This document shows, piece by piece, positions 12,858 to 53,397 of a stretch of 64,000 bases of DNA. Position 1 is the stretch's first letter. Every line of letters starts with the position of its first letter. The notes beneath the pieces are model-generated. The model saw only the letters and a list, made by a program, of their open reading frames with translations, was not told the origin of the DNA and made no database searches. A program made the translations under genes and the position numbers. This DNA comes from Shigella phage Sf17: the sequence record MF327004. One strand, written 5' to 3'.

Positions 12858-12937
12858 CTCCGTTTAGCTCAGTTTGGTTTAGCAGCACTTGCTTTGGGAG
12901 CAAGGGGTCGAAGGTTCAAATCCTTCAACGGAGACCA
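12858..12937 (+). tRNA. tRNA-Pro (anticodon TGG)
   Basis: Manual fold: acceptor CTCCGTT/AACGGAG, anticodon loop tt-TGG-ga, T-arm GAAGGTTCAAATCCTTC, encoded CCA. Confidence 0.55.
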
Positions 12938-12944
12938 AATTATA

Positions 12945-13020
12945 TTCCCGTAGACAAATTAGGTAAAGTCAACACCCTTTCAAGGTGTGGTTTGAGGGTT
13001 CAAGTCCCTTCGGGAATGCC
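12945..13020 (+). tRNA. tRNA-Glu (anticodon TTC)
   Basis: Acceptor ATTCCCG/CGGGAAT, anticodon stem ACACC/GGTGT with loop ct-TTC-aa, T-loop TTCAAGT, CCA. Confidence 0.6.
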
Positions 13021-13027
13021 AGTTTTG

Positions 13028-13100
13028 ACAGAAGACCAATTACAGCAAACAAACTTTTCAATTTCGCGCATAGAAATCCAAAAAAGATTTGGTCTGGTCA
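13028..13100 (+). repeat. structured repeat element R1 (candidate small RNA, not a tRNA)
   Basis: Conserved 5-prime cAGAAGACCaaTTACAGCAAACA and 3-prime tttGGTCTGGTca ends that can pair (AGACCAA/TTGGTCT); AT-rich interior. Confidence 0.45.
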
Positions 13101-13108
13101 TTAAGAAT

Positions 13109-13185
13109 TGCGGGTATAGAGAAAGGGTGTCTCACATGTCTCATTAGCATGTTATCGGTAGGTTCGACTCCTACACCCGCCTCCA
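13109..13185 (+). tRNA. tRNA-Met (anticodon CAT)
   Basis: Acceptor with 6 bp plus terminal mismatch, anticodon loop ct-CAT-ta, T-arm GTAGGTTCGACTCCTAC, CCA. Confidence 0.45.
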
Positions 13186-13190
13186 AATTT

Positions 13191-13260
13191 ACAGAAGGCC
13201 GTTTACAGCAAACACTTAAAATTTTTTATAGGCAAAAAATGAAAAGATACGGTCTGGTAA
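13191..13260 (+). repeat. structured repeat element R2
   Basis: Same conserved ends as R1 (cagaaGGCCGTttacagcaaaca ... atACGGTCTGGTaat). Confidence 0.45.
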
Positions 13261-13269
13261 TACTAACAT

Positions 13270-13346
13270 GGTTAGGAAGCACATAAGGCATGTGCGGTCG
13301 GCTGTTAACCGAATGGTACAGGGTTCGAATCCCTGACTAACCGCCA
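13270..13346 (+). tRNA. tRNA-Asn (anticodon GTT), unusual D-arm
   Basis: Anticodon loop ct-GTT-aa, T-arm CAGGGTTCGAATCCCTG, acceptor ACTAACC-G-CCA; D-region forms 5-bp hairpin GCACAtaaggcaTGTGC. Confidence 0.45.
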
Positions 13347-13410
13347 AGATTTGGGAGAGAAGCGATTGCTCACCGATTTGTAAGGTGCAAGTCCTTAGCC
13401 TGAATAGAAT
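13347..13410 (+). other. tRNA-like fragment (T-arm-like AAGGTGCAAGTCCTT without acceptor or CCA)
   Basis: Contains T-arm-like hairpin but no complementary acceptor strands were found. Confidence 0.25.
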
Positions 13411-13415
13411 AAAAT

Positions 13416-13503
13416 GCGTCGTTATCCCGTAGATGGAAGCGGTGGTGACTGTAAATCACTTGTCATTATGACTCGGGAGGTTCGACTCCTTCACGGCGCA
13501 CCA
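13416..13503 (+). tRNA. tRNA-Tyr (anticodon GTA), long variable arm
   Basis: Acceptor GCGTCGT/ACGGCGC, anticodon loop ct-GTA-aa, extra arm, T-arm GGAGGTTCGACTCCTTC, CCA. Confidence 0.5.
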
Positions 13504-13509
13504 AATAAA

Positions 13510-13586
13510 GGTTATGTAGTTTAACTGGTCAAAATACCTCCCTGTCACGGAGGATGATGAGGGTTCGAATCCCTTCGTAACCGCCA
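13510..13586 (+). tRNA. tRNA-Asp (anticodon GTC)
   Basis: Acceptor GGTTATG/CGTAACC, anticodon stem CCTCC/GGAGG with loop ct-GTC-ac, T-arm GAGGGTTCGAATCCCTT, CCA. Confidence 0.55.
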
Positions 13587-13616
13587 AATTTGAGAGGGCT
13601 TTTTAGCCCCTCCCTT

Positions 13617-13648
13617 AAAGAGTTCTTACGAGTATTCTTTAAAGGAGC
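13617..13648 (+). repeat. palindromic spacer element cttaaagaGTTCTTACGAGtattctttaaagg
   Basis: Related copies at 14541-14570 and 16778-16805. Confidence 0.4.
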
Positions 13649-13724
13649 AGAAGACCAAATACAGCAAGCAATTTTAATATTTCAAGCCAATTTAATTTGA
13701 AAAATTTAAAACTTGGTCTGGTTC
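13647..13724 (+). repeat. structured repeat element R3
   Basis: gcAGAAGACCAAatacagcaagca ... acttGGTCTGGTtcc. Confidence 0.45.
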
Positions 13725-13734
13725 CAACAATTTT

Positions 13735-13865
13735 ACAGAAGACCGTTTACAGCAAACAATAAACAATCTATTTCTCTGGTAAAGAAAAGGCGAAGGTTCG
13801 ATTCCTTCACACGTTACGGCGTGTTGGTGTAATGGAAGCACTTAAGATAAATACGGTCTGGTAAT
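13735..13865 (+). repeat. structured repeat element R4 (long variant containing a tRNA T-arm-like hairpin GAAGGTTCGATTCCTTC)
   Basis: Same conserved ends (cagaAGACCGTttacagcaaaca ... atACGGTCTGGTaat); ~110-nt interior includes a perfect T-arm mimic and hairpin ACACGttacggCGTGT. Confidence 0.45.
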
Positions 13866-13868
13866 CCT

Positions 13869-14001
13869 CTTTGCAGTGACTTATGGAGCTAACCAGTCGT
13901 CCCATGAGTGCCGAAGAGTCTCTTGAGCATGATTCTAGATTAGCTTACTAAGAGATGACTCTACAAACCCTTTAGCAAGGTTTGCGTAGGTTACTGCAAA
14001 G
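13869..14001 (+). ncRNA. candidate structured small RNA S1 (closed by 9-bp helix CTTTGCAGT/ACTGCAAAG)
   Basis: Terminal 9-bp inverted repeat about 115 nt apart plus internal hairpins (GAGTCTCTT...AAGAGAtGACTC; CAAACCctttagcaaGGTTTG); no ORF, no tRNA fold. Confidence 0.35.
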
Positions 14002-14011
14002 ATGATTTAAT

Positions 14012-14087
14012 GGAAGTGTAGCAGAATGGTGATGCGGCAGACTTTTAATCTGACAGGCGACGGGTTCGAATCCCTCCACTTCTACCA
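14012..14087 (+). tRNA. tRNA-Lys (anticodon TTT)
   Basis: Acceptor GGAAGTG/CACTTCT, anticodon loop ct-TTT-aa, T-loop TTCGAAT, CCA. Confidence 0.5.
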
Positions 14088-14092
14088 AATTC

Positions 14093-14159
14093 GCCCCTTA
14101 ACTGAAGAACACATGCGCGGCTGGAAACACCCACTCAATCATTTCTCTACAAAGGGGCA
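14093..14159 (+). other. hairpin-bounded spacer element (GCCCCTT ... AAGGGGC, ~55-nt interior)
   Basis: 7-bp inverted repeat enclosing a non-tRNA sequence. Confidence 0.3.
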
Positions 14160-14168
14160 ACTTATAAT

Positions 14169-14245
14169 GGTTCAGTCGCAGATAAGGTAATGCAAGGGTT
14201 TCATAAGCCCTATGAATGTGGGTTCGATTCCCACCTGAACCTCCA
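14169..14245 (+). tRNA. tRNA with anticodon CAT (Met, initiator or Ile2-type)
   Basis: Acceptor GGTTCAG/CTGAACC, anticodon loop tt-CAT-aa, T-arm GTGGGTTCGATTCCCAC, CCA. Confidence 0.55.
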
Positions 14246-14247
14246 AT

Positions 14248-14323
14248 GCTGGTATAGTTAAGAAGGTTATAACACTCCCCTGATAAGGGAATATCGGTGG
14301 TTCGATTCCACCTACCAGTACCA
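14248..14323 (+). tRNA. tRNA-Ile (anticodon GAT)
   Basis: Acceptor GCTGGTA/TACCAGT, anticodon loop ct-GAT-aa, T-arm GGTGGTTCGATTCCACC, CCA. Confidence 0.6.
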
Positions 14324-14337
14324 AATTTCATAAAGTT

Positions 14338-14367
14338 GTTGACATTAAGATGTGACCACTTTAAGAT
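14338..14367 (+). promoter_or_regulatory. putative internal sigma70-like promoter within the tRNA array
   Basis: TTGACA 14338-14343, 18-bp spacer, TAAGAT 14362-14367. Confidence 0.4.
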
Positions 14368-14571
14368 AACCTTAGTTTTCGTTAGCGTAGCGTCTATTTT
14401 AAAAACTTAAAAATAAATGCAAACGATAATGTTTTTCTGGCAGTAGCTTAATAGGCTAAACACCAGCAGGGTATTCCAACCCCCTGTTAAAGAATTTGGC
14501 GTACTAGCCCACGGTATGATTAATAAAGTGGGCATCTTTAAGGGTTTTCTAAGAGAGCCTTTAAAGATAAT

Positions 14572-14648
14572 GCACCCTTAGTTCAAACGGATAGAGCAAC
14601 GGTCTTCTAAACCGTCAGTTACAGGTTCGAATCCTGTAGGGTGTGCCA
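14572..14648 (+). tRNA. tRNA-Arg (anticodon TCT)
   Basis: Acceptor GCACCCT/AGGGTGT, D-arm TAGTTCAAACGGATAGAGC, anticodon loop ct-TCT-aa, T-arm CAGGTTCGAATCCTG, CCA. Confidence 0.6.
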
Positions 14649-14656
14649 ATTTTAAT

Positions 14657-14777
14657 GGTCAAGACAACACGAGTAAGTTATCTTGGATACGCGTTAAGAG
14701 ATAAACGAAAGTCGGATAGTTGCTGAAGGGTAGCTCCCTTTAATAGTAAGTAGGTTCGACTCCTACCTTGACTGCCA
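14657..14777 (+). other. tRNA-like element with T-arm and 3-prime CCA but ambiguous body (too long or missing anticodon arm)
   Basis: 3-prime GTAGGTTCGACTCCTAC-CTTGACT-G-CCA; candidate 5-prime acceptor at 14657 gives ~120 nt, at 14710 gives ~68 nt. Confidence 0.3.
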
Positions 14778-14942
14778 ATTAGTTAGCAGATTACTATGAC
14801 GACCTTTATGGGTCTCCGCATTGACTTGAAAGAGTCAATCTCATAAGGAGGTGGTCTGTATCTCATGTTTTCCAGAACATGTAAATAATCTGAGAAGAAG
14901 CTTGACAGTGTTGAGATAACAGGGTAAGCTTCGAAATATAGT

Positions 14943-15025
14943 ATGGGACGATGTTAAGACACTAAGGCATGTGCGTAAGCCTCCAAAACTTACTCAAAGG
15001 GGTTCGAATCCTCCGTCCCATGCCA
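14943..15025 (+). tRNA. tRNA, probably Trp (anticodon CCA) with mismatched closing pair
   Basis: Acceptor ATGGGAC/GTCCCAT, anticodon region GTAAGc-ctCCAaa-aCTTAC, T-loop TTCGAAT, CCA; D-region hairpin like the Asn tRNA. Confidence 0.4.
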
Positions 15026-15038
15026 AAGTCTTATTAGG

Positions 15039-15126
15039 GGTAGGTAGCGGCTAATGGAAGCCAAACTGTCTTGAAAACAGTTGCCATTGTAGAGATACGG
15101 TGAGGGTTCGACTCCTTTATCTACCG
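15039..15126 (+). tRNA. tRNA-Ser (anticodon TGA), long variable arm, no encoded CCA
   Basis: Acceptor GGTAGGT/ATCTACC, anticodon stem ACTGT/ACAGT loop ct-TGA-aa, long extra arm, T-loop TTCGACT. Confidence 0.55.
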
Positions 15127-15381
15127 CCTAATAAGATTTAAAGCTGAGACTATTTGTTCGAGCAAGTGTTTCAGGTTTCCTCTTCGTGTATTGGCGTACA
15201 CGGCACTGGTAAAGCACCTAGTAGGTGTCACGGAGAAGAGATAGTATCAAGCTCTCCAAAGGTTCTAGTCACCGGATTAAGCAAGACTATGCAAAGGCCA
15301 ATAGGTCTTTTTAGAGAATTGTTAAGGCATTTGATACCATTGTTGCTTTGGCGTCTTAGCAGTTCTCTACAAAGATTTAAT

Positions 15382-15458
15382 GCACCTATAGCCCAATTGG
15401 AAGAGGCAGCAGACTTAGAATCTGCTCAGTGTGAGTTCGAATCTCTCTAGGTGTACCA
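15382..15458 (+). tRNA. tRNA with anticodon TAG (Leu-type anticodon; short variable arm in manual fold)
   Basis: Acceptor GCACCTA/TAGGTGT, anticodon stem GCAGA/TCTGC loop ct-TAG-aa, T-loop TTCGAAT, CCA; 77 nt. Confidence 0.4.
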
Positions 15459-15465
15459 AATTAAT

Positions 15466-15541
15466 GCAGGTGTAGCAAAATGGTTATGCGGCTGACTCTT
15501 AATCAGTAAGACGATGGGTTCAATTCCCTCCACCTGTACCA
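15466..15541 (+). tRNA. tRNA, tentatively Lys (anticodon CTT)
   Basis: Acceptor GCAGGTG/CACCTGT, anticodon loop ct-CTT-aa, T-loop TTCAATT, CCA. Confidence 0.4.
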
Positions 15542-15547
15542 AACAAT

Positions 15548-15623
15548 GGGGATGTAGTTTACATGGTTAAAACATAAGTTTTGCAAACTTAAGTACAGGG
15601 TTCAATTCCCTGCTTCTCCACCA
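15548..15623 (+). tRNA. tRNA-Ala (anticodon TGC)
   Basis: Anticodon stem TAAGT/ACTTA loop tt-TGC-aa, T-arm CAGGGTTCAATTCCCTG, CCA. Confidence 0.55.
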
Positions 15624-15629
15624 ATTAGT

Positions 15630-15704
15630 GCATCCATAGTTTAAATGGGAAAATTACAGTCTTCCAAACTGAGGTTGAGGGTTCGATTCCCTCTGGATGC
15701 TCCA
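15630..15704 (+). tRNA. tRNA-Gly (anticodon TCC)
   Basis: Acceptor GCATCCA/TGGATGC, anticodon loop ct-TCC-aa, T-arm GAGGGTTCGATTCCCTC, CCA. Confidence 0.6.
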
Positions 15705-15710
15705 AATAAT

Positions 15711-15787
15711 GCTGCTTTCGTATAATTGGCTATTGCACATCCCTTGTAAGGATGGAGATGCAGGTTCGAGTCCTGTGAGCAGCACCA
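15711..15787 (+). tRNA. tRNA-Thr (anticodon TGT)
   Basis: Acceptor GCTGCTT/GAGCAGC, anticodon stem CATCC/GGATG loop ct-TGT-aa, T-loop TTCGAGT, CCA. Confidence 0.6.
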
Positions 15788-15792
15788 ATTTT

Positions 15793-15885
15793 GAGGTCAA
15801 GTGAAAGACCGCTTGAGTCAACTGAAGACCGTAACAAATTCCACGGAGTTGAGTTAGCGGCACAGCTTCAGACCTCTTCAAAGCT
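15793..15885 (+). ncRNA. candidate structured element S3 (nested inverted repeats GAGGTC...GACCTC and CTGAAG...CTTCAG)
   Basis: Non-tRNA spacer with nested helices; contains GAAGACCG word shared with R elements. Confidence 0.3.
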
Positions 15886-15892
15886 CGCTTAG

Positions 15893-15967
15893 TTTATATG
15901 GTAAAGCCCCATCCTTACAAGTTGGTGAAGAAGGTTCAAGTCCTTCAGCGAGTACCAAGTTCCAGTA
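15893..15967 (+). tRNA. tRNA-Val (anticodon TAC)
   Basis: Acceptor GCTCGCT/AGCGAGT, anticodon loop ct-TAC-aa, T-arm GAAGGTTCAAGTCCTTC, CCA. Confidence 0.55.
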
Positions 15968-15968
15968 T

Positions 15969-16046
15969 CCCAATTGGCAGAGGATGCAAGCTCAAACCTT
16001 GTATTAGTGACGGTTCGAATCCGTCTTGGAACACCAATTTTAGGAG
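15969..16046 (+). tRNA. tRNA with anticodon CAA (Leu-type anticodon; short variable arm in manual fold)
   Basis: Acceptor GTTCCAG/TTGGAAC, anticodon stem GCAAG/CTTGT loop ct-CAA-ac, T-arm GACGGTTCGAATCCGTC, CCA. Confidence 0.4.
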
Positions 16047-16052
16047 ATTCCT

Positions 16053-16265
16053 ATGAAGCCTTATGGTAGACATGGTAAAGTTGAAATTGCAAGTTGTGGC
16101 TGCTGTGCAGCACATGATGGTGAAGAAGATTATTACAAATGGCGTACAGACCATCGTAAACGCTTTCTCAGAAGAGATAAGAAGAGAGCTAGACAGGAAT
16201 CTCAAAAGGATATTGCAGAATTAGTTCAAATGGACAGAGCAGCAACCTACGAAGTTGTTAGTTAG
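16053..16265 (+). CDS. possible small basic protein (70 aa) whose 3-prime third overlaps tRNA-Arg; may be spurious
   Basis: AGGAGA ribosome-binding site 6 nt upstream of ATG; last ~17 codons lie inside tRNA-Arg(ACG). Confidence 0.25.
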   Translation: MKPYGRHGKVEIASCGCCAAHDGEEDYYKWRTDHRKRFLRRDKKRARQESQKDIAELVQMDRAATYEVVS

Positions 16266-16291
16266 GGGTTCGAATCCTCTATTCTGCACCA
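16215..16291 (+). tRNA. tRNA-Arg (anticodon ACG)
   Basis: Acceptor GCAGAAT/ATTCTGC, anticodon stem GCAAC/GTTGT loop ct-ACG-aa, T-loop TTCGAAT, CCA. Confidence 0.55.
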
Positions 16292-16309
16292 AATTTAATA
16301 GGTAACATT

Positions 16310-16537
16310 ATGTATAAACTCATAGTTGAAAAACATAAAGATGACCACAAGATTGAAACAGGTAGATTTGGAGATACTTTCTTTATAGCGGTTGGTTGGC
16401 AATGTGACCCGTTAGAAGTTAGAAAGATTGTTTATAACTTTGCTGGATTAGAACTTAAGCAAGCTATCTTCGAAACATCACTACCTGAAAATAAGGATAC
16501 TTGCAATAACGCATATATTCTTTCAAGAGTTCGTTAG
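16310..16537 (+). CDS. possible small protein (75 aa) between tRNA genes
   Basis: ORF fills the gap between two tRNAs; weak ribosome-binding site. Confidence 0.3.
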   Translation: MYKLIVEKHKDDHKIETGRFGDTFFIAVGWQCDPLEVRKIVYNFAGLELKQAIFETSLPENKDTCNNAYILSRVR

Positions 16538-16611
16538 GGGATTAGTTTACAAGGTTAAAACCTCGGTCTTTGAAATCGAAGAAGATGGTTCAATTCCATC
16601 ATCCCCCGCCA
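16536..16611 (+). tRNA. tRNA-Gln (anticodon TTG)
   Basis: Anticodon stem TCGGT/ATCGA loop ct-TTG-aa, T-arm GATGGTTCAATTCCATC, CCA; first acceptor pair mismatched. Confidence 0.5.
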
Positions 16612-16613
16612 AT

Positions 16614-16692
16614 GCTCCATTACTCCAATTGGCAGAGAGGCCAGATTTAAAATCTGTGTTATGTATCGGTTCGAATCCGATATGGAGTACCA
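16614..16692 (+). tRNA. tRNA with anticodon TAA (Leu-type anticodon; short variable arm in manual fold)
   Basis: Acceptor GCTCCAT/ATGGAGT, anticodon stem CCAGA/TCTGT loop tt-TAA-aa, T-arm ATCGGTTCGAATCCGAT, CCA. Confidence 0.4.
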
Positions 16693-16698
16693 AATATT

Positions 16699-16774
16699 AG
16701 CAGTATAGCATAACTGGCAATGCTCCAGCCTCTGAAGCTGAAAGATTAAGGTTCAAATCCTTATACTGCTGCCA
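16699..16774 (+). tRNA. tRNA-Gln (anticodon CTG)
   Basis: Acceptor AGCAGTA/TACTGCT, D-arm GCATaactggcaaTGC, anticodon loop ct-CTG-aa, T-arm TAAGGTTCAAATCCTTA, CCA. Confidence 0.55.
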
Positions 16775-16805
16775 CTTCTAAGGGTTCTTACGAGAGTCCT
16801 TAAAT

Positions 16806-16882
16806 GTGGCCTTATCATAAATGGATAATGACCCATGCTGTGAACATGGTCTATACGGGTTCGATTCCCGTAGGTCACCCCA
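16806..16882 (+). tRNA. tRNA-His (anticodon GTG)
   Basis: Acceptor GTGGCCT/AGGTCAC, anticodon stem CCATG/CATGG loop ct-GTG-aa, T-arm ACGGGTTCGATTCCCGT, CCA. Confidence 0.6.
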
Positions 16883-16888
16883 ATTTAA

Positions 16889-16966
16889 TAGCTCAATTAG
16901 CTTATATGGTTAAAGCGCGTGTCTGAAAAACATGAGAACAGGGTTCAAATCCCGATGGGCTACCAA
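16889..16966 (+). tRNA. tRNA, tentatively Phe (anticodon GAA); imperfect T-stem
   Basis: Acceptor TAGCTCA/TGGGCTA, D-stem GCTT/AAGC, anticodon loop ct-GAA-aa, T-loop TTCAAAT. Confidence 0.4.
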
Positions 16967-16981
16967 CTTTATAGGTGCATA

Positions 16982-17716
16982 ATGAAAGAGATGACAGAAC
17001 AAAGTAAAGAGATTTTTAATCTCCTTAAAGCTGGTAATGGTTTCTCAAACCCTCTTATTACTGGTGCAGCAGTTCTTGGTGGTACTATAGCTGCCTCTCA
17101 ATCATTAGTTAACTCAATTAGTTCTGTAACAGACCCAGCTACACAACAGATTTTAGTTGCTGCTGGACTGACAACAGCCTTATTAGGAAGCTTCACAACA
17201 AGCCTTGGAAGTACAACTTCAACGACAAGTACACTTACTGAGTATGGACAAAAGTCTGTAGATGAGTTTTCACAACGTATGCAAGTAGCCAAAGGTTACT
17301 CTAACGTTATGGGAGCAGCAGGTGAACAGGTTGGATGTACACCATTTAGCGGTATCATGGGCGTAGCTACCGAGTACGGTAATAAAGCGATGGATTTGAT
17401 TAATACCTCCATAGACGCTGTAAATGGCGTTCTAAGCGATTTGCAAGATGCAATCGACCAAGGACTAGATACAATCTCTGAACTCGCTACACAGGCCGTT
17501 ACAGCAATTAATGAGGGTATTGCAAAGATTACTGCATATGCTAATGAAGTAACTCAGATGATTGCAGATGAAGCAGCACTGATTGCAGAATACCTGAAAA
17601 CAAATATTAATGGTTTCCTTGCGAATGTTCTACCAAGCTGGTTTGATGATTCATGTAAAACTGGTGTGATTGATACTATCGCAACTCCAGAGATGAAAGA
17701 AGCTCTGAACAAATAA
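16982..17716 (+). CDS. hypothetical Ala/Thr/Ser-rich protein embedded in the tRNA array (start trimmed from 16919)
   Basis: ORF-track start at 16919 is a GTG inside the preceding tRNA; first ATG clear of the tRNA is 16982. Confidence 0.45.
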   Translation: MKEMTEQSKEIFNLLKAGNGFSNPLITGAAVLGGTIAASQSLVNSISSVTDPATQQILVAAGLTTALLGSFTTSLGSTTSTTSTLTEYGQKSVDEFSQRMQVAKGYSNVMGAAGEQVGCTPFSGIMGVATEYGNKAMDLINTSIDAVNGVLSDLQDAIDQGLDTISELATQAVTAINEGIAKITAYANEVTQMIADEAALIAEYLKTNINGFLANVLPSWFDDSCKTGVIDTIATPEMKEALNK

Positions 17717-17717
17717 T

Positions 17718-17810
17718 GGAAGATTAACCCTAAAAGGTAAGGGAGCAGTTTGCTAAACTGCCAGTAACCGAGAAATCGGCGTACCAGTTCAAGTCTGGTA
17801 TCTTCCTCCA
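17718..17810 (+). tRNA. tRNA-Ser (anticodon GCT), long variable arm
   Basis: Acceptor GGAAGAT/ATCTTCC, anticodon stem GCAGT/ACTGC loop tt-GCT-aa, extra arm, T-arm ACCAGTTCAAGTCTGGT, CCA. Confidence 0.6.
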
Positions 17811-17816
17811 AATTAT

Positions 17817-17892
17817 GTGTCGGTGTCAGAAATGGTTATGTGCCTGTCTGCAAAACAGGTTTATGAGGGTTCGAGTCCCTTCCGATACTCCA
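17817..17892 (+). tRNA. tRNA-Cys (anticodon GCA)
   Basis: Acceptor GTGTCGG/CCGATAC, anticodon stem CCTGT/ACAGG loop ct-GCA-aa, T-arm GAGGGTTCGAGTCCCTT, CCA. Confidence 0.6.
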
Positions 17893-47640: not shown

Positions 47641-47850
47641 CCGTTGGTTTATGCTGCTCAGTATACTCACCAAATTTTCTATGTCAACAACTTTATATTA
47701 AAAATTCTCTGACTACTGCATTTACTACAAATGATAACAGAGTAAGGGCTAAGGCTGATTTGTATGTTATGCTTAACAGTTTACTTATGAAGTAAGATAA
47801 TGATAAAACAACAAAAACAAACAGGATAATTGCGCTAAACATGCTAACCT

Positions 47851-48951
47851 CTATTCATAATCTCGTATAACAAGCCCAACAGGGAACTGTAAAGACCCCT
47901 TACGAGTCATCTTCTGGAACTGAACCGTTAAAGGCTTCCCGATAAACTCTTCAGGATGTTCAGCAAGATACTTTTTCTTCTCGTGTGTAGTTTTCCATGA
48001 AACATCTACAAAGACGTTAGGAAGAGTCTCTACAACGAACTTACCATGACCACGTTTATCAGTCTTTACACCAGTTACTTTAAATTCCTGTGTGTGCATC
48101 TTCTTGTGCTTAATCAGGAAGTAAGAGCGATGACCACACTCATAGAACGAATCTGGTGAGATTGACCGATACATTGCCCCTTCAAACTTGAGTTTAACCC
48201 AGTTGTCATGAGCATTATCAAATTCTTCCCAAGAGTTAACACGGATTGTCTGAACAGGTACAACCCTGCAAGCATCACCGAGTTCAACGATTGGTGAATT
48301 ATCAATAACTTCACGACGCTCAGGCCAAGATTTAGTCTTGTCACAGATATCATACCAGTAGAATTTAAGAAGGTGACGGTCTGGATTGTCAGCATTCTTA
48401 ATCATAGATACAATATCTTCCAAGTCCCAACCATGAGCATAAATCTCCCCGTCGAAATCCTCAACATCTTTGTGCAGTTTCAGCATAAGAAGAACATCAG
48501 GAATCAACTCTACAGGAATGTTGTATACCGTGTTCTCACGAGAATATGCCGTAAAACTTTCTGAGTCAGCATCTCTTGAAATCCTGCAACGAACACCATC
48601 AAGTTTAGGTTGAGCATCGGCAGGGAATACCAGATACTTCTTGTGACTTATCTTGGAAGCATCCTGAGCAAGCTGTACACCAACCTTCTCAACATTCTCT
48701 GCTTCAGATTTTGTGTAAGCATATCCTTTACGGTCAACCTGCTTCTTGTACTTAGCAGCAACTTCAAAGAGAGCTTGCTGTTCAGCATTACGCTCATTCT
48801 TTTTACCGATGTTCTTAGGTTCTGCTGTGTACTCTTCAAACATCATCTTGCCATTTTCTTTACCATAAGTTGTGACGACTTTATCACCTACAGCAACACA
48901 TGACCAGACGTTGAAAGAACCATCTTTATTTTGTTTGTACAGAATTGTCAT
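47851..48951 (-). CDS. ATP-dependent DNA ligase
   Basis: Adenylation motif I PKLDGVRC; 366 aa, similar in size to T7-type ligases. Confidence 0.8.
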   Translation of the reverse strand: MTILYKQNKDGSFNVWSCVAVGDKVVTTYGKENGKMMFEEYTAEPKNIGKKNERNAEQQALFEVAAKYKKQVDRKGYAYTKSEAENVEKVGVQLAQDASKISHKKYLVFPADAQPKLDGVRCRISRDADSESFTAYSRENTVYNIPVELIPDVLLMLKLHKDVEDFDGEIYAHGWDLEDIVSMIKNADNPDRHLLKFYWYDICDKTKSWPERREVIDNSPIVELGDACRVVPVQTIRVNSWEEFDNAHDNWVKLKFEGAMYRSISPDSFYECGHRSYFLIKHKKMHTQEFKVTGVKTDKRGHGKFVVETLPNVFVDVSWKTTHEKKKYLAEHPEEFIGKPLTVQFQKMTRKGSLQFPVGLVIRDYE

Positions 48952-49154
48952 TTACGTTTCCCACCAATTTCTACATCAATAACTTGTGTGTCTCCACAAA
49001 CATCAAACTTATGAATGATATTCTCTACAGTGTAAGTCCAACCATCAATCCTTACCCATTCACCTTCTCGTGGCACTATTGGGTTACGTTGTGCTACAGT
49101 TGTAGTTGAGTGAACAACGTCATACTTATAGATAAAATTTACCAGAACCTGCAT
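48948..49154 (-). CDS. hypothetical protein (start trimmed from 49205)
   Basis: Internal ATG avoids 50-nt overlap with upstream lipoprotein gene. Confidence 0.35.
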   Translation of the reverse strand: MQVLVNFIYKYDVVHSTTTVAQRNPIVPREGEWVRIDGWTYTVENIIHKFDVCGDTQVIDVEIGGKRK

Positions 49155-49155
49155 A

Positions 49156-49401
49156 TCAATATCCTCCATCAAAAACTGTGGTGTGTGACTGACTATTCTT
49201 CCCATACTTGTAAGAAGTTGTAGTCTGAGAATTTGGGCAGCGAACTACAATAACATCCCTGCTAATGGCATCACCATTAAGCTTATAAATCTTGCAGTCT
49301 TGCATTTCTGGAGGAAGTCTGTAAGAGGCATCCTTATTCTCATAAGAAGGGTTGCACCCCACCAGTAAGACTACTAAAGCTGGTATCAATAATTTTAACA
49401 T
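49156..49401 (-). CDS. putative lipoprotein
   Basis: N-terminus MLKLLIPALVVLLVGCNPSY: signal peptide with lipobox-like LVGC. Confidence 0.55.
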   Translation of the reverse strand: MLKLLIPALVVLLVGCNPSYENKDASYRLPPEMQDCKIYKLNGDAISRDVIVVRCPNSQTTTSYKYGKNSQSHTTVFDGGY

Positions 49402-49411
49402 TTTAAACCTC

Positions 49412-49663
49412 TCAATAAAATAAGTCTGAAGCTTTTGAATTTACAGGATTCAAAGAACCTTCGTAATGTTCTTCATAACCCTCTTGGCAGATATTATACA
49501 GTTCTTTGAATCGGGTTTCATCAACTGGTTTAACATCTTTCTTAGCGCATAAGAAGAGATACCAATCATACCCCAAATCCCTGCACCAAGCCTCTGAGAC
49601 AAAAGCTATTGATTTGTCTTCGCTCTTGAAGATTGCTAAAGCTTCTTGCTCTTTATTGCTCAC
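49412..49663 (-). CDS. hypothetical protein (83 aa)
   Basis: ORF in small-gene island. Confidence 0.45.
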   Translation of the reverse strand: MSNKEQEALAIFKSEDKSIAFVSEAWCRDLGYDWYLFLCAKKDVKPVDETRFKELYNICQEGYEEHYEGSLNPVNSKASDLFY

Positions 49664-49874
49664 GATACTCTACCTCTCTAAAAGTTTTATGGTAATAGAT
49701 TTTGTAGTAAGCTATCTCGTTACTTTTAACATTTGTTTTAAGAAGAGTCCAGTCATAACCTTCACCAACTCTTCCCCAAATGCTATAAAGTTTCATTAAA
49801 GATACTCCATCCAGTTTTCTGCCAAGGTTCCCCCTTGTACCATGCAGCCATTGGGTAACCCATTTCACATACAA
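49653..49874 (-). CDS. hypothetical ORF (73 aa), overlaps neighbour by 92 nt; possibly shorter or spurious
   Basis: ORF-track call; 3-prime-proximal internal ATG at 49796 would remove the overlap. Confidence 0.25.
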   Translation of the reverse strand: MYVKWVTQWLHGTRGNLGRKLDGVSLMKLYSIWGRVGEGYDWTLLKTNVKSNEIAYYKIYYHKTFREVEYREQ

Positions 49875-49974
49875 CCTTTCCGTCTTTTATTTCAAAGAAC
49901 TCATCAGATGTGAAATTTTCATTTCGAACTTTCTTGCCCTGTTTCATAGCTTCGAGAGCTTCTTCGTATGTCAT
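49783..49974 (-). CDS. small protein tentatively resembling DUF2829-type phage proteins (start trimmed from 49989)
   Basis: N-terminus MTYEEALEAMKQGKKVRNENF...; resemblance to DUF2829 is from memory, not a search; ATG at 49974 gives 4-nt overlap with upstream gene. Confidence 0.35.
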   Translation of the reverse strand: MTYEEALEAMKQGKKVRNENFTSDEFFEIKDGKVVCEMGYPMAAWYKGEPWQKTGWSIFNETL

Positions 49975-50180
49975 TTTTGGTGTCTCCAAAATTCAATGTC
50001 AATAAGTTCCTGTGCAATACTCTTCAGATTCCCTTTCAAGAAAACCTTTTCAGAGTTAGGTAGGCTTGCATTATCAATGAGTCTATTCATTCTGTCAAAA
50101 AGAGTTTTCTTCCGATTCTTGATAGTCTCTTTTGAAGCACCTTGCATCATGGCAAGATGAGTTCTTCCACGGTGGCTCAT
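49971..50180 (-). CDS. hypothetical basic protein (69 aa)
   Basis: ORF in small-gene island. Confidence 0.4.
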   Translation of the reverse strand: MSHRGRTHLAMMQGASKETIKNRKKTLFDRMNRLIDNASLPNSEKVFLKGNLKSIAQELIDIEFWRHQK

Positions 50181-50377
50181 AGACGTTCACCTTTAAGGTA
50201 ACCTGTCTTATCCTTGATAATCTTACCTCCAGCAATAAAAATATCAACCTTGCGAAGATTTTCATTAGAAAGCTTGAGGTGCTTATGGCTACTGCAAATG
50301 ATGATGCACATAGTCTCAATCTCACTTTGAGAATATCCAGCACATTGCAGTTGAACTTCAATTTCTGAAATAGTCAT
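50177..50377 (-). CDS. hypothetical protein (66 aa)
   Basis: ORF immediately downstream of DNA polymerase gene. Confidence 0.4.
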   Translation of the reverse strand: MTISEIEVQLQCAGYSQSEIETMCIIICSSHKHLKLSNENLRKVDIFIAGGKIIKDKTGYLKGERL

Positions 50378-50438
50378 ACAAGTCTCCTATACAATATATA
50401 GTATAAGGTACTCTTCCATGAGCACCTTGTCAACACTA

Positions 50439-53138
50439 TTAGTGGACTTCAAGCCACGATTTACCAACTTTCCCTGCACCTGTGACCAATGTCTCTTTTC
50501 TTAGCCCAAGGTTCTTAGATGCTTGACCATAATACCAGTCAGTTACTGCTTTCACATCTGCTGTCATGCTCTCTGGACATTCCCAGCTTGTTTCATCGTG
50601 GTAAGCACAGAGTAAGCGAGCACCAATAGCTGGTTTACGACCATTCAACTTCATCAAACCTTCGTCAATCATACGACGACATGCAAGGTTGATTGCTTCA
50701 TTCTGAACTTGTGCTTCTGAACCCATCAGCAAATAGTTCAAGAGTTTGTGTGGAGACTTACACCACAGCCAAGCCCCAGCAACCTTCACAAAACCACCTT
50801 TAGAGATTGCAGCAGTTTTACCAAACACCTCTTCAAGTGCTTTCTTAGTTGCTTTGAAATCAGCTTCCAAGTTGTCTAACAGTTTCTTAATCTTCGGCAA
50901 ACGCACAAAGTAAGTCTGCTTAGTCAATGCACCTTCCTGAGTAGTTGCTGCTTTAATTGTCTTGGCAAACTTCTCATCACCTGCACCGAACAACAAAGCA
51001 TAGATACCATTCTTAGCTTTCTTACGTCCCTTGCTAATCTCATGAAGAAGATTCTCATCCTGAGTAGCACGACAAGTCAAGATATCTTGCTCATCATTAA
51101 GGCTGAAGTAGATACTGTTCAGAGTGTGAGCATCAGTCCCTGAGTAAACTACGTACAAATCGTTTTCAGAGTCGTAACGCAGATACTTGTCAATCTCTGG
51201 ATTCAGATACTGGTCAAAGTGTTTACAGTAGTATCTTCCATCCTCTTGACGGACAAACTCAATCTCTTCTTTACCCTCTGTTACCGCTTTGGTGAAGTCT
51301 TTATCACCCATGAAGTTACAGAGTAGTACAAGCTGTGCAGAGTTCATATCAACAGATACTACGTTGGTTCCCTCTTCACAAATCCACACTGCCCTCATTG
51401 GCTCACCGTACACGGCAGCACCAGAAGGTACGTTTACAATACCATACTGAGTCATACGTCCAGTAGAAGTACCAAACACCATTGCACCTGCACTCAAACG
51501 ACCATCTGGACGAATCTGGTTCAGCCAACCTTTCTCATCATCCTTTGAGTTCTCAATAGTCCTGCGTCGGTGCATCAAAGTATAGTACTTCGCAATCTTC
51601 TGTCCAAGCTCACCTTCGATTGTATCATAAGAAGACTCTGTAAGCTTTGGTGAAGTCCTAATCAAGCAAGGCTCAAGCACATCTGTGTACTTCTTAACAG
51701 ACCAGTTATGCTCAATGTAATAGACACCTTCATGCTCAATGTAATTCAATCCACAACGTTCAACCATCTCATCCCACTTAGGATGTTTGCGAATCATCTT
51801 TTTGTTGTCTTTGAATCTGCAAACCTTGATAGGACGACCATCAGAATCTTTTTTATAGTTCCAATCATCAGGAATCCAACCAACGGATTTTAAGTAATCC
51901 TTCACCACAGCTACCTGAGTCATTCGTGAAACTTCAAACTCAATTGGTGTGAATGGTGCATCAATCAAACCAGTGTAGCGACTAGACTCTAACTCAAAGT
52001 GGTTAACAACGTGAACATTGTAGTACTTCACAGTTTTCACAGTCTTAACTGGCTTCCAATCTTTACACTTCTTGCCAATCTTCTCATTCAGTTCATTACA
52101 AACTGCACGAGCATCTTTCATTGCTACAAAACCTTCAGGGTACTCTTCTTTTGTGACCGTGTTAGTTGGAGTGTAGCAGTTGCGTTTCTCAACATTAAAA
52201 ATCTTTGTAGTTGGCTTACCATACGGCTTGATAGGGTACTGCTTCAACTCGCCTTCACGCATCTGTTCACGATACTTTGTCTTAGGGTACTTGGTAATCC
52301 TTTTTAAACCGTCAACGTGACCAAATGTATCTACATACTCATTCCAAGACTTGGCAAATTCTTCACCTGTGACTTTACCTTTTGTCTTAATAGTTGGTGG
52401 AAGGTGTGGTTCAACCTCAGCAGCCAACTCATTAGTTAACTTGTCAAGCTCTTTAACGTGGAACTGCATAAGCTCTACATCAGCTTTCCAACCGTTGATA
52501 GCTTGCTGACTCATCCAGAAAGATGTTTCTTTAGCTCGCATGTAGGTTTCATAAGTGTCAACACCACACTTCTTAAGCTTGAGGTACTCATTATCAAGAG
52601 CACGTTTAGTTTTGGCGTTAATCTTAATATCTTCTACAACACGAGTAAGAATCTCTGCATTCCAGACACCCCACTCTTCAATCTCTGGTTTACGGACACC
52701 TACACGAGCACCCCATGCAGCCAAACCATGAGCACCTTTGTAACCTTTTGGTGTAGGTCTATCCATCCACTGTACGCGAGATTGGATAAGTGAATCCTGA
52801 AAGAAGTCACCCCAAGGCTTACACTTAGGATTCTCAAAGTTCCACAGGTCAGGTGCAATGTGATTAAACACCCACCAGTCATAACCAAGACCATTATGGA
52901 TACAAAGACGTTTAGCTTTCAGTGCAAACTCAACCCCTTCACGCAGACCACCTTTGATGTACTTCGTGTACTTGTGACCAAGGATAGGCTCATCAGTGAA
53001 CACCCACACAGCAGGTTCGTCACTGTCATCTTTATAGTCTGCGAAAGCCATTACGTGTGCTTTTGTAAACTCAAGGAGCAACCCATCAGTTTCTGTATCA
53101 CCAACCAAATGTAATTTTTCGAAATCTACATTGTCCAT
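50439..53138 (-). CDS. DNA polymerase, family A, with 3-prime to 5-prime exonuclease domain
   Basis: Exo I motif VGDTETDGL near N-terminus; motif B-like KAKNGIYALLFGAG; motif C LLCAYHDETSWE. Confidence 0.9.
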   Translation of the reverse strand: MDNVDFEKLHLVGDTETDGLLLEFTKAHVMAFADYKDDSDEPAVWVFTDEPILGHKYTKYIKGGLREGVEFALKAKRLCIHNGLGYDWWVFNHIAPDLWNFENPKCKPWGDFFQDSLIQSRVQWMDRPTPKGYKGAHGLAAWGARVGVRKPEIEEWGVWNAEILTRVVEDIKINAKTKRALDNEYLKLKKCGVDTYETYMRAKETSFWMSQQAINGWKADVELMQFHVKELDKLTNELAAEVEPHLPPTIKTKGKVTGEEFAKSWNEYVDTFGHVDGLKRITKYPKTKYREQMREGELKQYPIKPYGKPTTKIFNVEKRNCYTPTNTVTKEEYPEGFVAMKDARAVCNELNEKIGKKCKDWKPVKTVKTVKYYNVHVVNHFELESSRYTGLIDAPFTPIEFEVSRMTQVAVVKDYLKSVGWIPDDWNYKKDSDGRPIKVCRFKDNKKMIRKHPKWDEMVERCGLNYIEHEGVYYIEHNWSVKKYTDVLEPCLIRTSPKLTESSYDTIEGELGQKIAKYYTLMHRRRTIENSKDDEKGWLNQIRPDGRLSAGAMVFGTSTGRMTQYGIVNVPSGAAVYGEPMRAVWICEEGTNVVSVDMNSAQLVLLCNFMGDKDFTKAVTEGKEEIEFVRQEDGRYYCKHFDQYLNPEIDKYLRYDSENDLYVVYSGTDAHTLNSIYFSLNDEQDILTCRATQDENLLHEISKGRKKAKNGIYALLFGAGDEKFAKTIKAATTQEGALTKQTYFVRLPKIKKLLDNLEADFKATKKALEEVFGKTAAISKGGFVKVAGAWLWCKSPHKLLNYLLMGSEAQVQNEAINLACRRMIDEGLMKLNGRKPAIGARLLCAYHDETSWECPESMTADVKAVTDWYYGQASKNLGLRKETLVTGAGKVGKSWLEVH

Positions 53139-53397
53139 TTTTACTCCCTCTCAAATCATTCTGGGTAATACCCTACAGCAATTTTCTGCAAAAAGCAAGT
53201 TGACAAACTGCTTGACAAGGTGTTAGTCTTTTCGAAGTGGGTTTTATCTTAATAGACTCCCTTTATAGATTAACTATACAGTTTCTTTAAAAGTCTTAAA
53301 AGATTTTTAATAGCTTTTAAAAAGCTTTAAAGTTATATGTATAACATACATAAAGATAAGAGATTAAAATCTTTATAGATACTTAACAGAGGCAATC
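53139..53397. promoter_or_regulatory. divergent intergenic control region (tandem TTGACAA boxes, AT-rich palindromes)
   Basis: agTTGACAAactgcTTGACAAgg at 53198-53219; repeated cttaaaag / ctttatag words; separates minus-strand polymerase from plus-strand block. Confidence 0.35.

Follow-up and report, generated by a model that had tools for sequence, protein, structure and literature searches.

A minimal Tad2-fold protein and a predicted lipoprotein in a mosaic island of small genes of the Felix-O1-like Shigella phage Sf17

Phage sponges such as Tad1, Tad2, Acb2, Acb4, Sequestin, Lockin and TadIV-1 are small, oligomeric and early-expressed proteins that soak up nucleotide signals. The known nucleotide sponges have positively charged pockets, and the Tal et al. 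preprint calls its pipeline 'prediction of positively charged pockets'. TadIV-1 (T4 vs.3) is restricted to Straboviridae and has a structure distinct from the known sponges. Tad2 proteins are homotetramers whose pockets lie where protomers meet. Helix α1 serves their tetramerisation, and the residues binding 1''-3' gcADPR (3'cADPR), the Thoeris signal, were established by mutagenesis and crystallography (W25/N26 and S76/T78/D79 in SPO1 Tad2; W21/N22 and S90/T92/D93 in HgmTad2). Either the double mutation W21A/N22A or the triple mutation S90A/T92A/D93A strongly reduced gcADPR binding by HgmTad2. In HgmTad2 and SptTad2, an insertion of 35-41 residues between strands β2 and β5 forms a cyclic-dinucleotide pocket. 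Only about 1% of Tad2 proteins are predicted to lack the gcADPR site. When sponge homologues were tested, 19 out of 84 (about a quarter) inhibited none of seven signalling systems, and the authors suggest that these have unknown ligands. A preprint on sponge diversity tested 18 Tad2 homologues.

The locus considered here belongs to the Felix-O1-like Shigella phage Sf17. The window, that is the whole stretch of 64,000 nucleotides that was analysed (record MF327004), is a Mooglevirus sequence 99.6% identical to Shigella phage Sf18. An earlier note, made from the sequence alone, had pointed to an island of seven small genes at 48948-50377, flanked by the genes for DNA ligase and DNA polymerase. 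The observation is confirmed: seven densely packed minus-strand ORFs of 47-83 aa fill the span, all of them labelled 'hypothetical' in public records. Gene starts were chosen to agree with GenBank Sf18 gp19-gp25. With this choice, a purine-rich Shine-Dalgarno-like sequence lies 5' of all seven genes, and in most cases the start overlaps the preceding stop. Each gene matches a separate PHROG family (E from 5e-17 to 1e-50), which marks them as conserved genes and excludes chance ORFs. The size range first given, 47-85 aa, was right in that the genes are small and tightly packed, but the largest product has 83 aa, the first gene encoding 68 aa and not 85. The 85-aa version of this gene is the longest ORF, from an ATG at 49205; the shorter start is favoured by the PHROG_4427 match, which spans residues 18-85 of the long ORF, and a GGAGGA Shine-Dalgarno motif precedes the internal ATG.

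Both flanking genes are also on the minus strand. Downstream lies an ATP-dependent DNA ligase (366 aa, 47851-48951; Sf18 gp18; Pfam DNA_ligase_A_M and DNA_ligase_OB_2; PHROG_114, E 6.7e-94), and upstream a family-A DNA polymerase (899 aa, 50439-53138; PF00476; Sf18 gp26). No terminator-like site was found between polymerase and ligase, and the island probably shares a transcription unit with the polymerase. Numbered from the ligase side, g1 (68 aa, 48948-49154; PHROG_4427, E 2e-45; Sf18 gp19) has no Pfam, NCBIfam, PADLOC or PDB match. It is followed by g2 (49156-49401; PHROG_902), discussed below, g3 (83 aa, acidic with a pI of 4.7, GTG start; 49412-49663; PHROG_9065, E 1e-49) and g4 (47 aa, basic; 49653-49796; PHROG_2381, E 4e-21). 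Beyond g5 stand g6 (69 aa, very basic with a pI of 10.4; 49971-50180; PHROG_5180, E 2.6e-46), without significant Pfam or PDB match, and g7 (66 aa, with a Cys/His-rich N-terminal half; 50177-50377; PHROG_4230, E 8e-36). NCBIfam and PADLOC returned nothing for the six genes other than g5, and the searches run gave no functional signal for g1, g3, g4, g6 and g7.

A presence/absence matrix shows that sister phages differ, in a mosaic fashion, in the genes that they carry between ligase and polymerase. The g1 product of Michonne is only 53% identical; g3 is found in Sf18, Sf19 and Michonne and is missing from Bas63 and SUSP1; g4 is missing from Sf19, Moogle and SUSP1 and has 57% identity in Bas63. 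The fastest-diverging gene of the block is g7 (74% identity in Sf19, 42% in Michonne, 38% in SUSP1 and 36% in Bas63, compared with 87-100% for the ligase). Some alleles are decayed or chimeric. DNA alignment with Sf19 and Moogle delimits g4 and g5 as an insertion/deletion cassette (49653-49974, minus strand). In these two phages, the ATGA that ends g6 runs directly into g3; in the Sf17 window, the ATG at the end of g6 starts g5, and the GTG-initiated g3 comes after the cassette. The g4-g5 segment is thus a clean and precise indel between sister phages, and this, with the mosaic content, bears out the accessory character first proposed for the island. The seven genes may be pictured as a translationally coupled, dispensable accessory block within an early/middle replication operon (polymerase, then island, then ligase), the content of which would be shuffled by recombination at gene boundaries. 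A near-consensus σ70 promoter inside g6 (TTGACA-17-GATAAT, 50098-50070) was considered as a dedicated g5 promoter. The idea was dropped because just two of the 21 loci fetched keep the site exactly and the region shows no excess of promoter-like sites (17 found, 13.4 expected).

Within the cassette, g5 (49783-49974) encodes a 63-aa protein, here called mini-Tad2. A likeness to DUF2829-type proteins had been proposed for its N-terminus, and it holds at the level of the fold. The Pfam profile PF11195 ('Tad2-like') matches g5 with an E-value of 3.7e-5, but at 24.6 bits this is a borderline miss, 0.4 bits under the gathering cut-off of 25, and the match covers only profile positions 1-40 of 73. 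The same profile is matched at E < 0.01 by 24 of 71 mini-Tad2 family members (best E 1.5e-5). A profile of bona fide Tad2 sequences, run against all stop-to-stop ORFs of at least 35 aa, found g5 as its sole match in the whole window (E 8.4e-4). Comparison of the mini-family with 43 bona fide Tad2 proteins by hhalign gave a probability of 92.7% in a greedy alignment (E 4.4e-7, 59 columns) and of 92.4%, over 26 columns only, by default, both with E about 5e-7; the C-terminal half of g5 aligns to Tad2 only when forced. Single-sequence and profile HMM searches of the PDB sequences with g5 gave only non-significant Tad2 matches (E 0.16-0.57), which covered no more than the N-terminal helix and the DW motif at the C-terminus. 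Because these sequence searches are weak, a fold comparison was needed. The AlphaFold model of g5 (pLDDT 90.5) has the Tad2/DUF2829 core of helix α1 and a small antiparallel β-sheet. Searched against the PDB with Foldseek, it returned Tad2-family structures as its only significant matches: the top 14 are all Tad2 (probability up to 0.99, TMq 0.58-0.69), and non-Tad2 matches all have a probability of 0.10 or less. BFVD matches include proteins of 60-63 aa labelled DUF2829 or Tad2-like. These comparisons place g5 in the Tad2/DUF2829 fold, as a minimal member. A PADLOC match of g5 to type IV Cas8/Csf1 (E 3.7e-4, 18 bits) is short and partial and was rejected as noise.

Retention of the core in g5, with helix α1, the β-sheet and two aromatic 'walls' (F21 for W25, and W45 aligned to W73), goes along with marked departures from Tad2. 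With 63 aa, g5 is shorter than the Tad2 proteins SPO1 gp34.65, HgmTad2/AcrIIA7, ModTad2 and SptTad2 (86-104 aa). Residues W25, N26, G27, K28, W73, S76, Q77, T78 and D79 are invariant in all 43 bona fide Tad2 sequences. In g5, the W-N-G-K and S-Q-T-D motifs are replaced by F-T-S-D and G-E-P. Positions W25, N26, W73, S76, T78 and D79 of SPO1 Tad2 correspond to F21, T22, W45, a gap, E49 and P50, so that only aromatic character is kept among the gcADPR-binding positions. Of the β2-β5 insertion, only a turn of two residues, D31-G32, is left (26 gap columns in the alignment), and in the model strands 27-30 and 33-36 are joined directly. In Tad2, this insertion also includes helix α2 of the dimer interface, which g5 lacks; since the α2/β2 dimer interface is deleted, oligomerisation may not be retained. 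The mini-Tad2 family has a conserved set of its own, K15, H/N18, E25, E37, G39 and Y40, residue 18 being His in 57 of 71 relatives and Asn in the clade of the Sf17 window. In the alignment, the family-conserved positions fall on segments that match the pocket-forming segments of Tad2.

The mini-Tad2 family (~60 aa) occurs in 454 phage genomes and forms at least 231 clusters at 50% identity. Its members are found in FelixO1-like, T4-like, rV5-like and T5-like phages of Enterobacteriaceae. In the T5-like Epseptimavirus phages, the g5 homologue stands last in the left terminal repeat, the pre-early region; the T5 terminal repeat holds no g5 homologue, and the arrangement is that of Epseptimavirus-type T5-like phages only. 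In T4-like, rV5-like and Bas81 phages, homologues sit within runs of small early genes. Tandem duplications of the domain (P0105, P0077 and P0112) suggest that the unit works as an oligomer. Heterogeneous, unannotated C-terminal extensions are present on 43 family members, and a Pfam scan of these longer proteins for fusion partners returned no informative domain. Such extensions would suit a ligand-binding module and an adaptor or oligomerisation module equally well. None of the papers searched links Tad2 to Ounavirinae, BASEL or Epseptimavirus phages.

Most likely, g5 would work in the cytoplasm during early infection, as a small binder that forms homo-oligomers. Its likeliest target would be a small-molecule signal made by the host and different from gcADPR. 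The putative pocket would be lined by K15, H/N18, F21, E25, E37, G39-Y40 and G55-W56, predicted to sit on the equivalents of the β1-β2 loop, the β3-β4 region and the C-terminal helix region. The shared logic of the other sponges could apply to g5, but fold searches return Tad2 only, and no relation in sequence or fold to Tad1, Acb2, Acb4, Sequestin, Lockin or TadIV-1 was detected. It can further be proposed that the mini-Tad2 proteins, reduced to the Tad2 core, make up a sponge class that is new and capture an immune signal that canonical Tad2 does not. We regard this as doubtful. Such a sponge would use a re-engineered pocket (K15, H/N18, F21, E25, E37, Y40 and W56), and the signal might be the product of a defence system that has yet to be described.

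Alternatively, g5 may have kept the Tad2 core only as a compact scaffold for another purpose, as a protein-binding inhibitor of a host factor or as an oligomerisation/adaptor module, in which case the island would serve host takeover or replication tuning rather than anti-defence. Both known Tad2 ligand sites are missing from g5, which lies inside a replication operon, and many longer proteins begin with its domain, followed by C-terminal parts that are unrelated and unannotated. The protein is also acidic (pI 4.8), and two glutamates are among the most conserved residues of the family, whereas the pockets of known nucleotide sponges carry positive charge. However, all characterised members of the Tad2 fold retrieved in PDB searches are small-molecule sponges, and the conserved residues lie on the Tad2 pocket segments rather than on a distinct surface. 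Moreover, the homologues in the T5-like pre-early region are among the first genes to enter the cell, and this region carries host-shutoff and counter-defence genes. A non-sponge role is considered less likely than not.

Much less probable is that g5 is a Tad2 in the strict sense, a tetrameric sponge for gcADPR that would make the island anti-Thoeris. The fold, the borderline PF11195 match and the retained pocket aromatics F21 and W45 would agree with this, and Tad2 proteins are described as versatile. However, g5 has F, T, S and D at four positions invariant in the 43 Tad2 proteins, and a gap, E and P at S76/T78/D79, while HgmTad2 mutated at its site binds gcADPR poorly and predicted loss of this site is rare among Tad2 proteins. 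With the gcADPR residues replaced and the β2-β5 insertion absent, an anti-Thoeris role for g5 is unsupported, and so is the Thoeris link raised in the earlier note. A cyclic-dinucleotide role is likewise not supported, the pocket-forming insertion being missing from the g5 sequence.

The second gene of interest, g2, encodes an 81-aa protein whose signal peptide, MLKLLIPALVVLLVG, is followed by the lipobox cysteine Cys16 (LVGC) and a mature part of about 65 aa. The N-terminus (MLK-LLIPALVVLLV-G-C16) fits the lipobox [LVI][ASTVI][GAS]-C. In a scan with a PROSITE-PS51257-like rule, two of 617 Met-initiated ORFs in the window match, g2 being one and the other lying antisense to a 294-aa ORF. Residues G15 and C16 do not vary among 12 close homologues and five distant ones (31-74% identity). 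In homologues of Felixounavirus and of phages of Vibrio, Erwinia, Klebsiella and Acinetobacter, G15, C16, Y27, P30, C36, V52, C55 and P56 are all invariant. By tblastn, homologues occur in 572 phage records. The lipoprotein first proposed from the LVGC motif is upheld, since the lipobox Cys and a second Cys pair are kept across homologues: g2 encodes the precursor of a lipoprotein whose family is conserved in many virulent phages that infect Gram-negative bacteria. The mature protein would be exported, lipid-anchored and periplasm-facing, with a putative C36-C55 disulfide, and may act on the envelope of the infected cell, not in lysis. Under the E. coli +2 rule, Asp at +2 is an inner-membrane retention signal. 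The +2 residue is Asn in Sf17 and Asp in two homologues from enterobacterial phages, so that the membrane sorting predicted from it is ambiguous. The AlphaFold model of g2 is poor (pLDDT 58.6), and a phmmer search of all PDB chains (E up to 10) brought up nothing but noise from ribosomal protein eL18. Precomputed annotation assigns g2 homologues to Pfam DUF4884 (PF16225), a family without known function, but hmmscan of Pfam with g2 did not reproduce the match. A Zn_ribbon_InsA match (E 0.0035-0.11) was rejected as well under threshold.

Receptor masking or superinfection exclusion had also been suggested for g2. It would then be an exclusion factor of the T5 Llp / Cor type, placed in the outer membrane's inner leaflet and blocking the receptor that the phage itself uses. 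The design is indeed comparable, a small phage-encoded lipoprotein with a lipobox, a conserved pair of Cys and some 65 aa in its mature part; g2 is probably also made early, with the replication genes, and its Asn at +2 would allow sorting to the outer membrane. Nevertheless, g2 lies in the replication module and adjoins no receptor-binding protein gene (the tail fibre gene of Moogle is more than 8 kb away), and the PDB search detected no similarity to any chain. Its homologues occur in unrelated Vibrio, Erwinia, Klebsiella and Acinetobacter phages, for which a common receptor is unlikely, and the Asp at +2 of two homologues predicts retention in the inner membrane. Furthermore, the receptor of Felix-O1-type phages is LPS rather than a porin-type protein. 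The suggestion was not borne out, and an Llp/Cor-type function appears improbable. A role for g2 in lysis, as outer-membrane spanin (Rz1 equivalent), was also considered, since g2 is a small lipoprotein with a conserved Cys and the lysis genes of Felix-O1-like phages are dispersed over the genome. This is effectively refuted, because Moogle has an annotated overlapping o-/i-spanin pair (gp121/gp122, 84.4-84.9 kb) far from its 'hypothetical' g2 homologue gp40. Neither g1 nor g3, the genes next to g2, encodes a transmembrane segment for an i-spanin, and the lack of a C-terminal transmembrane domain in g2 excludes a unimolecular spanin.

Taken together, the account that we favour, tentatively and at somewhat less than an even chance, is that of an accessory block in which g5 is a small-molecule binder and g2 an envelope lipoprotein outside lysis. 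The island is thus a testable anti-defence lead, as a candidate only, and g5 may be a sponge with a different ligand or may have a non-sponge role. Sponge proteins have repeatedly been a route to the discovery of bacterial immune signals; Tad1 and MoTad2, used as baits, led to 3'cADPR and His-ADPR. Mini-Tad2 is a concrete candidate for a new specificity, being widespread and strongly conserved in its own residue set, with both known ligand sites lost. It is also easily tested, with 63 aa and natural sister phages that carry (Sf18) or lack (Sf19) the g4-g5 cassette. If it is a new sponge, g5 would be usable as a bait for signal discovery. If it is not, the label 'Tad2-like domain' would not mean 'anti-Thoeris', which matters for automated anti-defence annotation. 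Mini-Tad2 would also offer a first clue to function for genes that hundreds of candidate therapeutic phages of E. coli, Shigella, Salmonella and Klebsiella carry as 'hypothetical'.

Seven small genes (g1 to g7) lie on the minus strand between the DNA ligase and family-A DNA polymerase genes of Shigella phage Sf17, with polymerase on their 5' side and ligase on their 3' side (window 48948-50377). Their starts, concordant with GenBank, define g1 (48948-49154, 68 aa), g2 (49156-49401, 81 aa), g3 (49412-49663, 83 aa, GTG start), g4 (49653-49796, 47 aa), g5 (49783-49974, 63 aa), g6 (49971-50180, 69 aa), and g7 (50177-50377, 66 aa). The earlier note described this island accurately, with one correction. 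The 85-aa ORF at the top of its size range is the longest-ORF reading of g1; the 68-aa form is favored because the PHROG match spans residues 18-85 and the ribosome-binding site is better. A Shine-Dalgarno-like sequence precedes each of the seven genes, most gene starts overlap the preceding stop in ATGA-type junctions, and no terminator-like site was found between the island and the polymerase or ligase gene. The island genes would be early genes, co-expressed with the polymerase. A near-consensus sigma70-like promoter (TTGACA-17-GATAAT, window 50098-50070, minus strand) lies 96 nt upstream of g5, within g6. Of 21 fetched loci only 2 keep it exactly, so that it is probably a chance match. Directly downstream of ligase, a 49-aa minus-strand ORF (window 47693-47842, PHROG_22006) is extremely hydrophobic (GRAVY 1.77) and is conserved in Sf18, Sf19, and Michonne, with 40% identity in Bas63. 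It probably encodes a small membrane protein and could count as part of the island.

In total, 260 phage records match window 47800-53200, including Shigella phage Sf18, a Felix-O1-like myovirus (Ounavirinae, genus Mooglevirus), at 99.6% identity. The seven Sf18 genes between DNA ligase (gp18) and DNA polymerase (gp26), gp19-gp25, are all annotated "hypothetical," as are the island genes in every public source, and each of g1-g7 matches a separate PHROG family of unknown function (E 5e-17 to 1e-50). Gene content was compared by local tblastn in five relatives (Sf18, Sf19, Michonne, Bas63, and SUSP1) and separately, from the annotated genome, in Moogle. Both g1 and g7 are present in all five tblastn relatives; g2 is found in Sf18, Sf19, Michonne, and Bas63 and is absent from SUSP1; g3 in Sf18, Sf19, and Michonne and absent from Bas63 and SUSP1; g4 in Sf18, Michonne, and Bas63 and absent from Sf19, SUSP1, and Moogle; g5 in Sf18, Michonne, and SUSP1 and absent from Sf19, Bas63, and Moogle. 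The g7 proteins share 36-74% identity, as compared with 87-100% for the ligases of the same relatives. On DNA alignment, the ATGA that closes g6 is followed at once by g3 in Sf19 and Moogle; this ATG serves as the g5 start codon in the window, where g3 comes after g4 and has a GTG start. The g4-g5 cassette has thus been cleanly gained or lost at a gene boundary.

Several alleles are decayed or recombinant. Inside g5, a homopolymer (window 49830-49834, CCCCC on the plus strand, GGGGG in the gene) is the site of a frameshift in Citrobacter phage BSwM KMM2, giving a 106-aa fusion of the N-terminal part of g5 to g4 (P0326), which may reflect sequencing error, decay, or slippage. In Shigella phage vB_SflM_004 (equivalent of window 49783-50377), an 83-aa chimera (P0008) joins a g7-like N-terminus to g5 from R17, with loss of helix α1 and deletion of g6, further evidence of recombination and decay inside the island. 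The g5 homologues P0005, P0006, and SUSP1 agp043 end in KASDLFF, which we regard as the same C-terminus as the KASDLFY of g3 (window 49412-49430), and an opening microhomology, ATGA...GAAGAAGC, is common to g3 and g5; both features suggest recombination scars. Extra genes are found at the island edges in relatives (L020/L021 4024-4557; L002 3244-3756; L010 2775-3302), namely a 177-aa ORF between g1 and ligase and HNH/AP2 homing endonucleases adjoining polymerase. Because of these additions, the polymerase-ligase interval is also seen as a place where mobile endonuclease genes land. The mosaic content, the clean indel, and the decayed or recombinant alleles mark the island as dispensable and fast-turning. 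Such turnover fits accessory host-interaction genes, and is not proof of an anti-defence function.

Against the Pfam "Tad2-like" family (PF11195, DUF2829), named after the Thoeris anti-defence 2 protein, g5 scores 24.6 bits (E 3.7e-5), just missing the gathering score of 25, with a match confined to positions 1-40 of the 73 in the profile. A word-indexed protein search returned only close relatives; an exhaustive HMM search gathered a mini-family of 231 cluster representatives (E <=1e-3), most of them stand-alone proteins of 59-70 aa, and 24 of 71 aligned members match PF11195 at E <0.01. For comparison, SPO1 Tad2 (gp34.65, 89 aa) was taken from the SPO1 genome and its homologues, all with PF11195, were gathered, 43 being aligned. 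Profile-profile comparison of the mini-family with these bona fide Tad2 proteins gave a probability of 92.4% across the 26 N-terminal columns; a greedier alignment reached 59 columns, at 92.7% (E 4.4e-7). Among all window ORFs, g5 alone was retrieved by an HMM built from the bona fide set (E 8.4e-4). The AlphaFold2 model of g5 is confident (pLDDT 90.5), with a helix (3-11) and four strands (16-18, 27-30, 33-36, and 56-58). The top 14 Foldseek matches in the PDB are all Tad2 structures (SPO1, ModTad2, and SptTad2; probability <=0.99, query TM 0.58-0.69), every further match having a probability of 0.10 or less; among predicted viral structures, matches include 60-63-aa proteins labelled DUF2829 or Tad2-like in UniProt. 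The likeness to DUF2829 pointed out in the earlier note is thus borne out: g5 shows the Tad2 fold and is very probably a remote homologue.

This raises the question of whether g5 has kept the ligand sites of Tad2, a phage sponge for the immune signal gcADPR. In SPO1 Tad2, gcADPR is contacted by W25, N26, I63, T65, D67, H71, W73, S76, T78, and D79. W25, N26, G27, K28, W73, S76, Q77, T78, D79, D84, and W85 are invariant in the 43 aligned sequences. In HgmTad2, binding is strongly reduced by either the W21A/N22A double or the S90A/T92A/D93A triple mutation, and the site is conserved in ~99% of Tad2 proteins. In the full-length alignment, F21/T22/S23/D24 of g5 stand opposite W25/N26/G27/K28, W45 opposite W73, and W56 opposite W85, whereas S76 falls in a gap and T78 and D79 are replaced by E49 and P50. 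Judging from this alignment, g5 retains the aromatic frame of Tad2, with its polar ligand contacts all altered. Tad2 has a further pocket, which takes cyclic dinucleotides and is made by 35-41 residues inserted between β2 and β5. In g5 a two-residue turn stands in place of this insertion, and helix α2, which contributes to the dimer interface of Tad2, is lost with it. Hence g5 is without either known Tad2 ligand site. However, the mini-family strongly conserves A6, M10, G13, K15, V16, H18 (Asn in the clade of this phage), F21, E25, E37, G39, Y40, G55, and W56. Since these positions fall, in the alignment, within the loop from β1 to β2, the β3-β4 region, and the C-terminal end, the segments matching the Tad2 pocket-makers, their conservation argues for a functional site with a chemistry differing from that of Tad2.

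By tblastn, the mini-family is found in 454 phage records, whose phages include T4-like phages of Klebsiella, Citrobacter, and Salmonella, rV5-like Vequintavirinae, Erwinia phages, and Bas81. The gene is the last one in the left terminal repeat of T5-like Epseptimavirus, the pre-early first-step-transfer DNA that enters the cell first (for example, L005 4001-4198 of phage cott162); T5 itself has no homologue. Outside Epseptimavirus, it lies within runs of small early hypothetical genes. Two or three tandem domains in some relatives (P0105, P0077, and P0112) hint at an oligomeric working unit. Unannotated C-terminal extensions are present in many others, and in some (P0018, P0022, P0023, and P0031) they are long and end in a common basic tail, KGKGHNKLQKRKKK.

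It can be proposed that g5 would be oligomeric, its re-lined pocket binding some small molecule that is neither gcADPR nor a cyclic dinucleotide. That it is an immune-signal sponge, whatever the specificity, is a tentative reading. Sponge families offer a precedent for unknown ligands, 19 of 84 tested homologues having inhibited none of seven systems. A role other than that of a sponge is only slightly less likely for g5. With its polar gcADPR contacts altered, g5 is very doubtful as a sponge specifically for the Thoeris type I signal.

The lipoprotein predicted in the earlier note, g2, also stands. With MLKLLIPALVVLLVG-C16 at its N-terminus, it satisfies the lipobox rule, as does only one other of the 617 Met-initiated ORFs of the window, which is antisense to a 294-aa ORF. 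The L-x-G-C motif and mature sequence are nearly unchanged in 12 close homologues. By tblastn, 572 phage records carry the family: nearly all Ounavirinae have it, and so do ~290 Vibrio phages, Erwinia and E. coli jumbo phages, Klebsiella Vequintavirinae, and Acinetobacter phages. Since five distant homologues (31-74% identity) all retain G15, C16, Y27, P30, C36, V52, C55, and P56, the lipid anchor and the Cys pair are features of the family, the latter probably forming a periplasmic disulfide. Directly after the lipid-modified Cys, g2 has Asn and the Erwinia and Klebsiella phage homologues have Asp. According to the E. coli "+2 rule," Asp at this position predicts inner-membrane retention, so that the compartment faced by g2 is uncertain. 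The protein would be exported, lipidated, and disulfide-bonded, with an envelope-directed role. A spanin function is ruled out: the genome announcements of Moogle and Michonne report separate inner and outer spanin genes, and those of Moogle (overlapping gp121/gp122, 84.4-84.9 kb) are distinct from the "hypothetical" g2 homologue gp40. No sequence similarity of g2 to any PDB chain was found, and its AlphaFold model is unreliable (pLDDT 58.6). Precomputed annotation tables assign g2 homologues to Pfam DUF4884 (PF16225), a family of no known function, whereas hmmscan of g2 against our Pfam copy gives no match to it even at E up to 10, which may be a version or filter discrepancy.

Elsewhere in the window, 26 tRNA genes covering most amino acids are clustered at 12858-17892 (plus strand), with a similar cluster in Moogle. 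Outside the window, the genus also has genes for a nicotinate/nicotinamide phosphoribosyltransferase, a ribose-phosphate pyrophosphokinase, and a Macro-domain protein (Moogle KM236239, 3197-6412 and 82504-83298); such genes could work against defences that deplete NAD or are based on ADP-ribose, the Thoeris effector among them.

GenBank already listed the island genes as hypothetical proteins, and an automatic "DUF2829" label was in place on short relatives of g5; our literature search found no paper linking Tad2 to these phage groups. What is new here is a distinct, widespread 60-aa subfamily with the Tad2 core and without either ligand site. That the island serves as an anti-defence and exclusion locus is a hypothesis, and the mini-Tad2 subfamily provides a cheap, well-defined experimental target.
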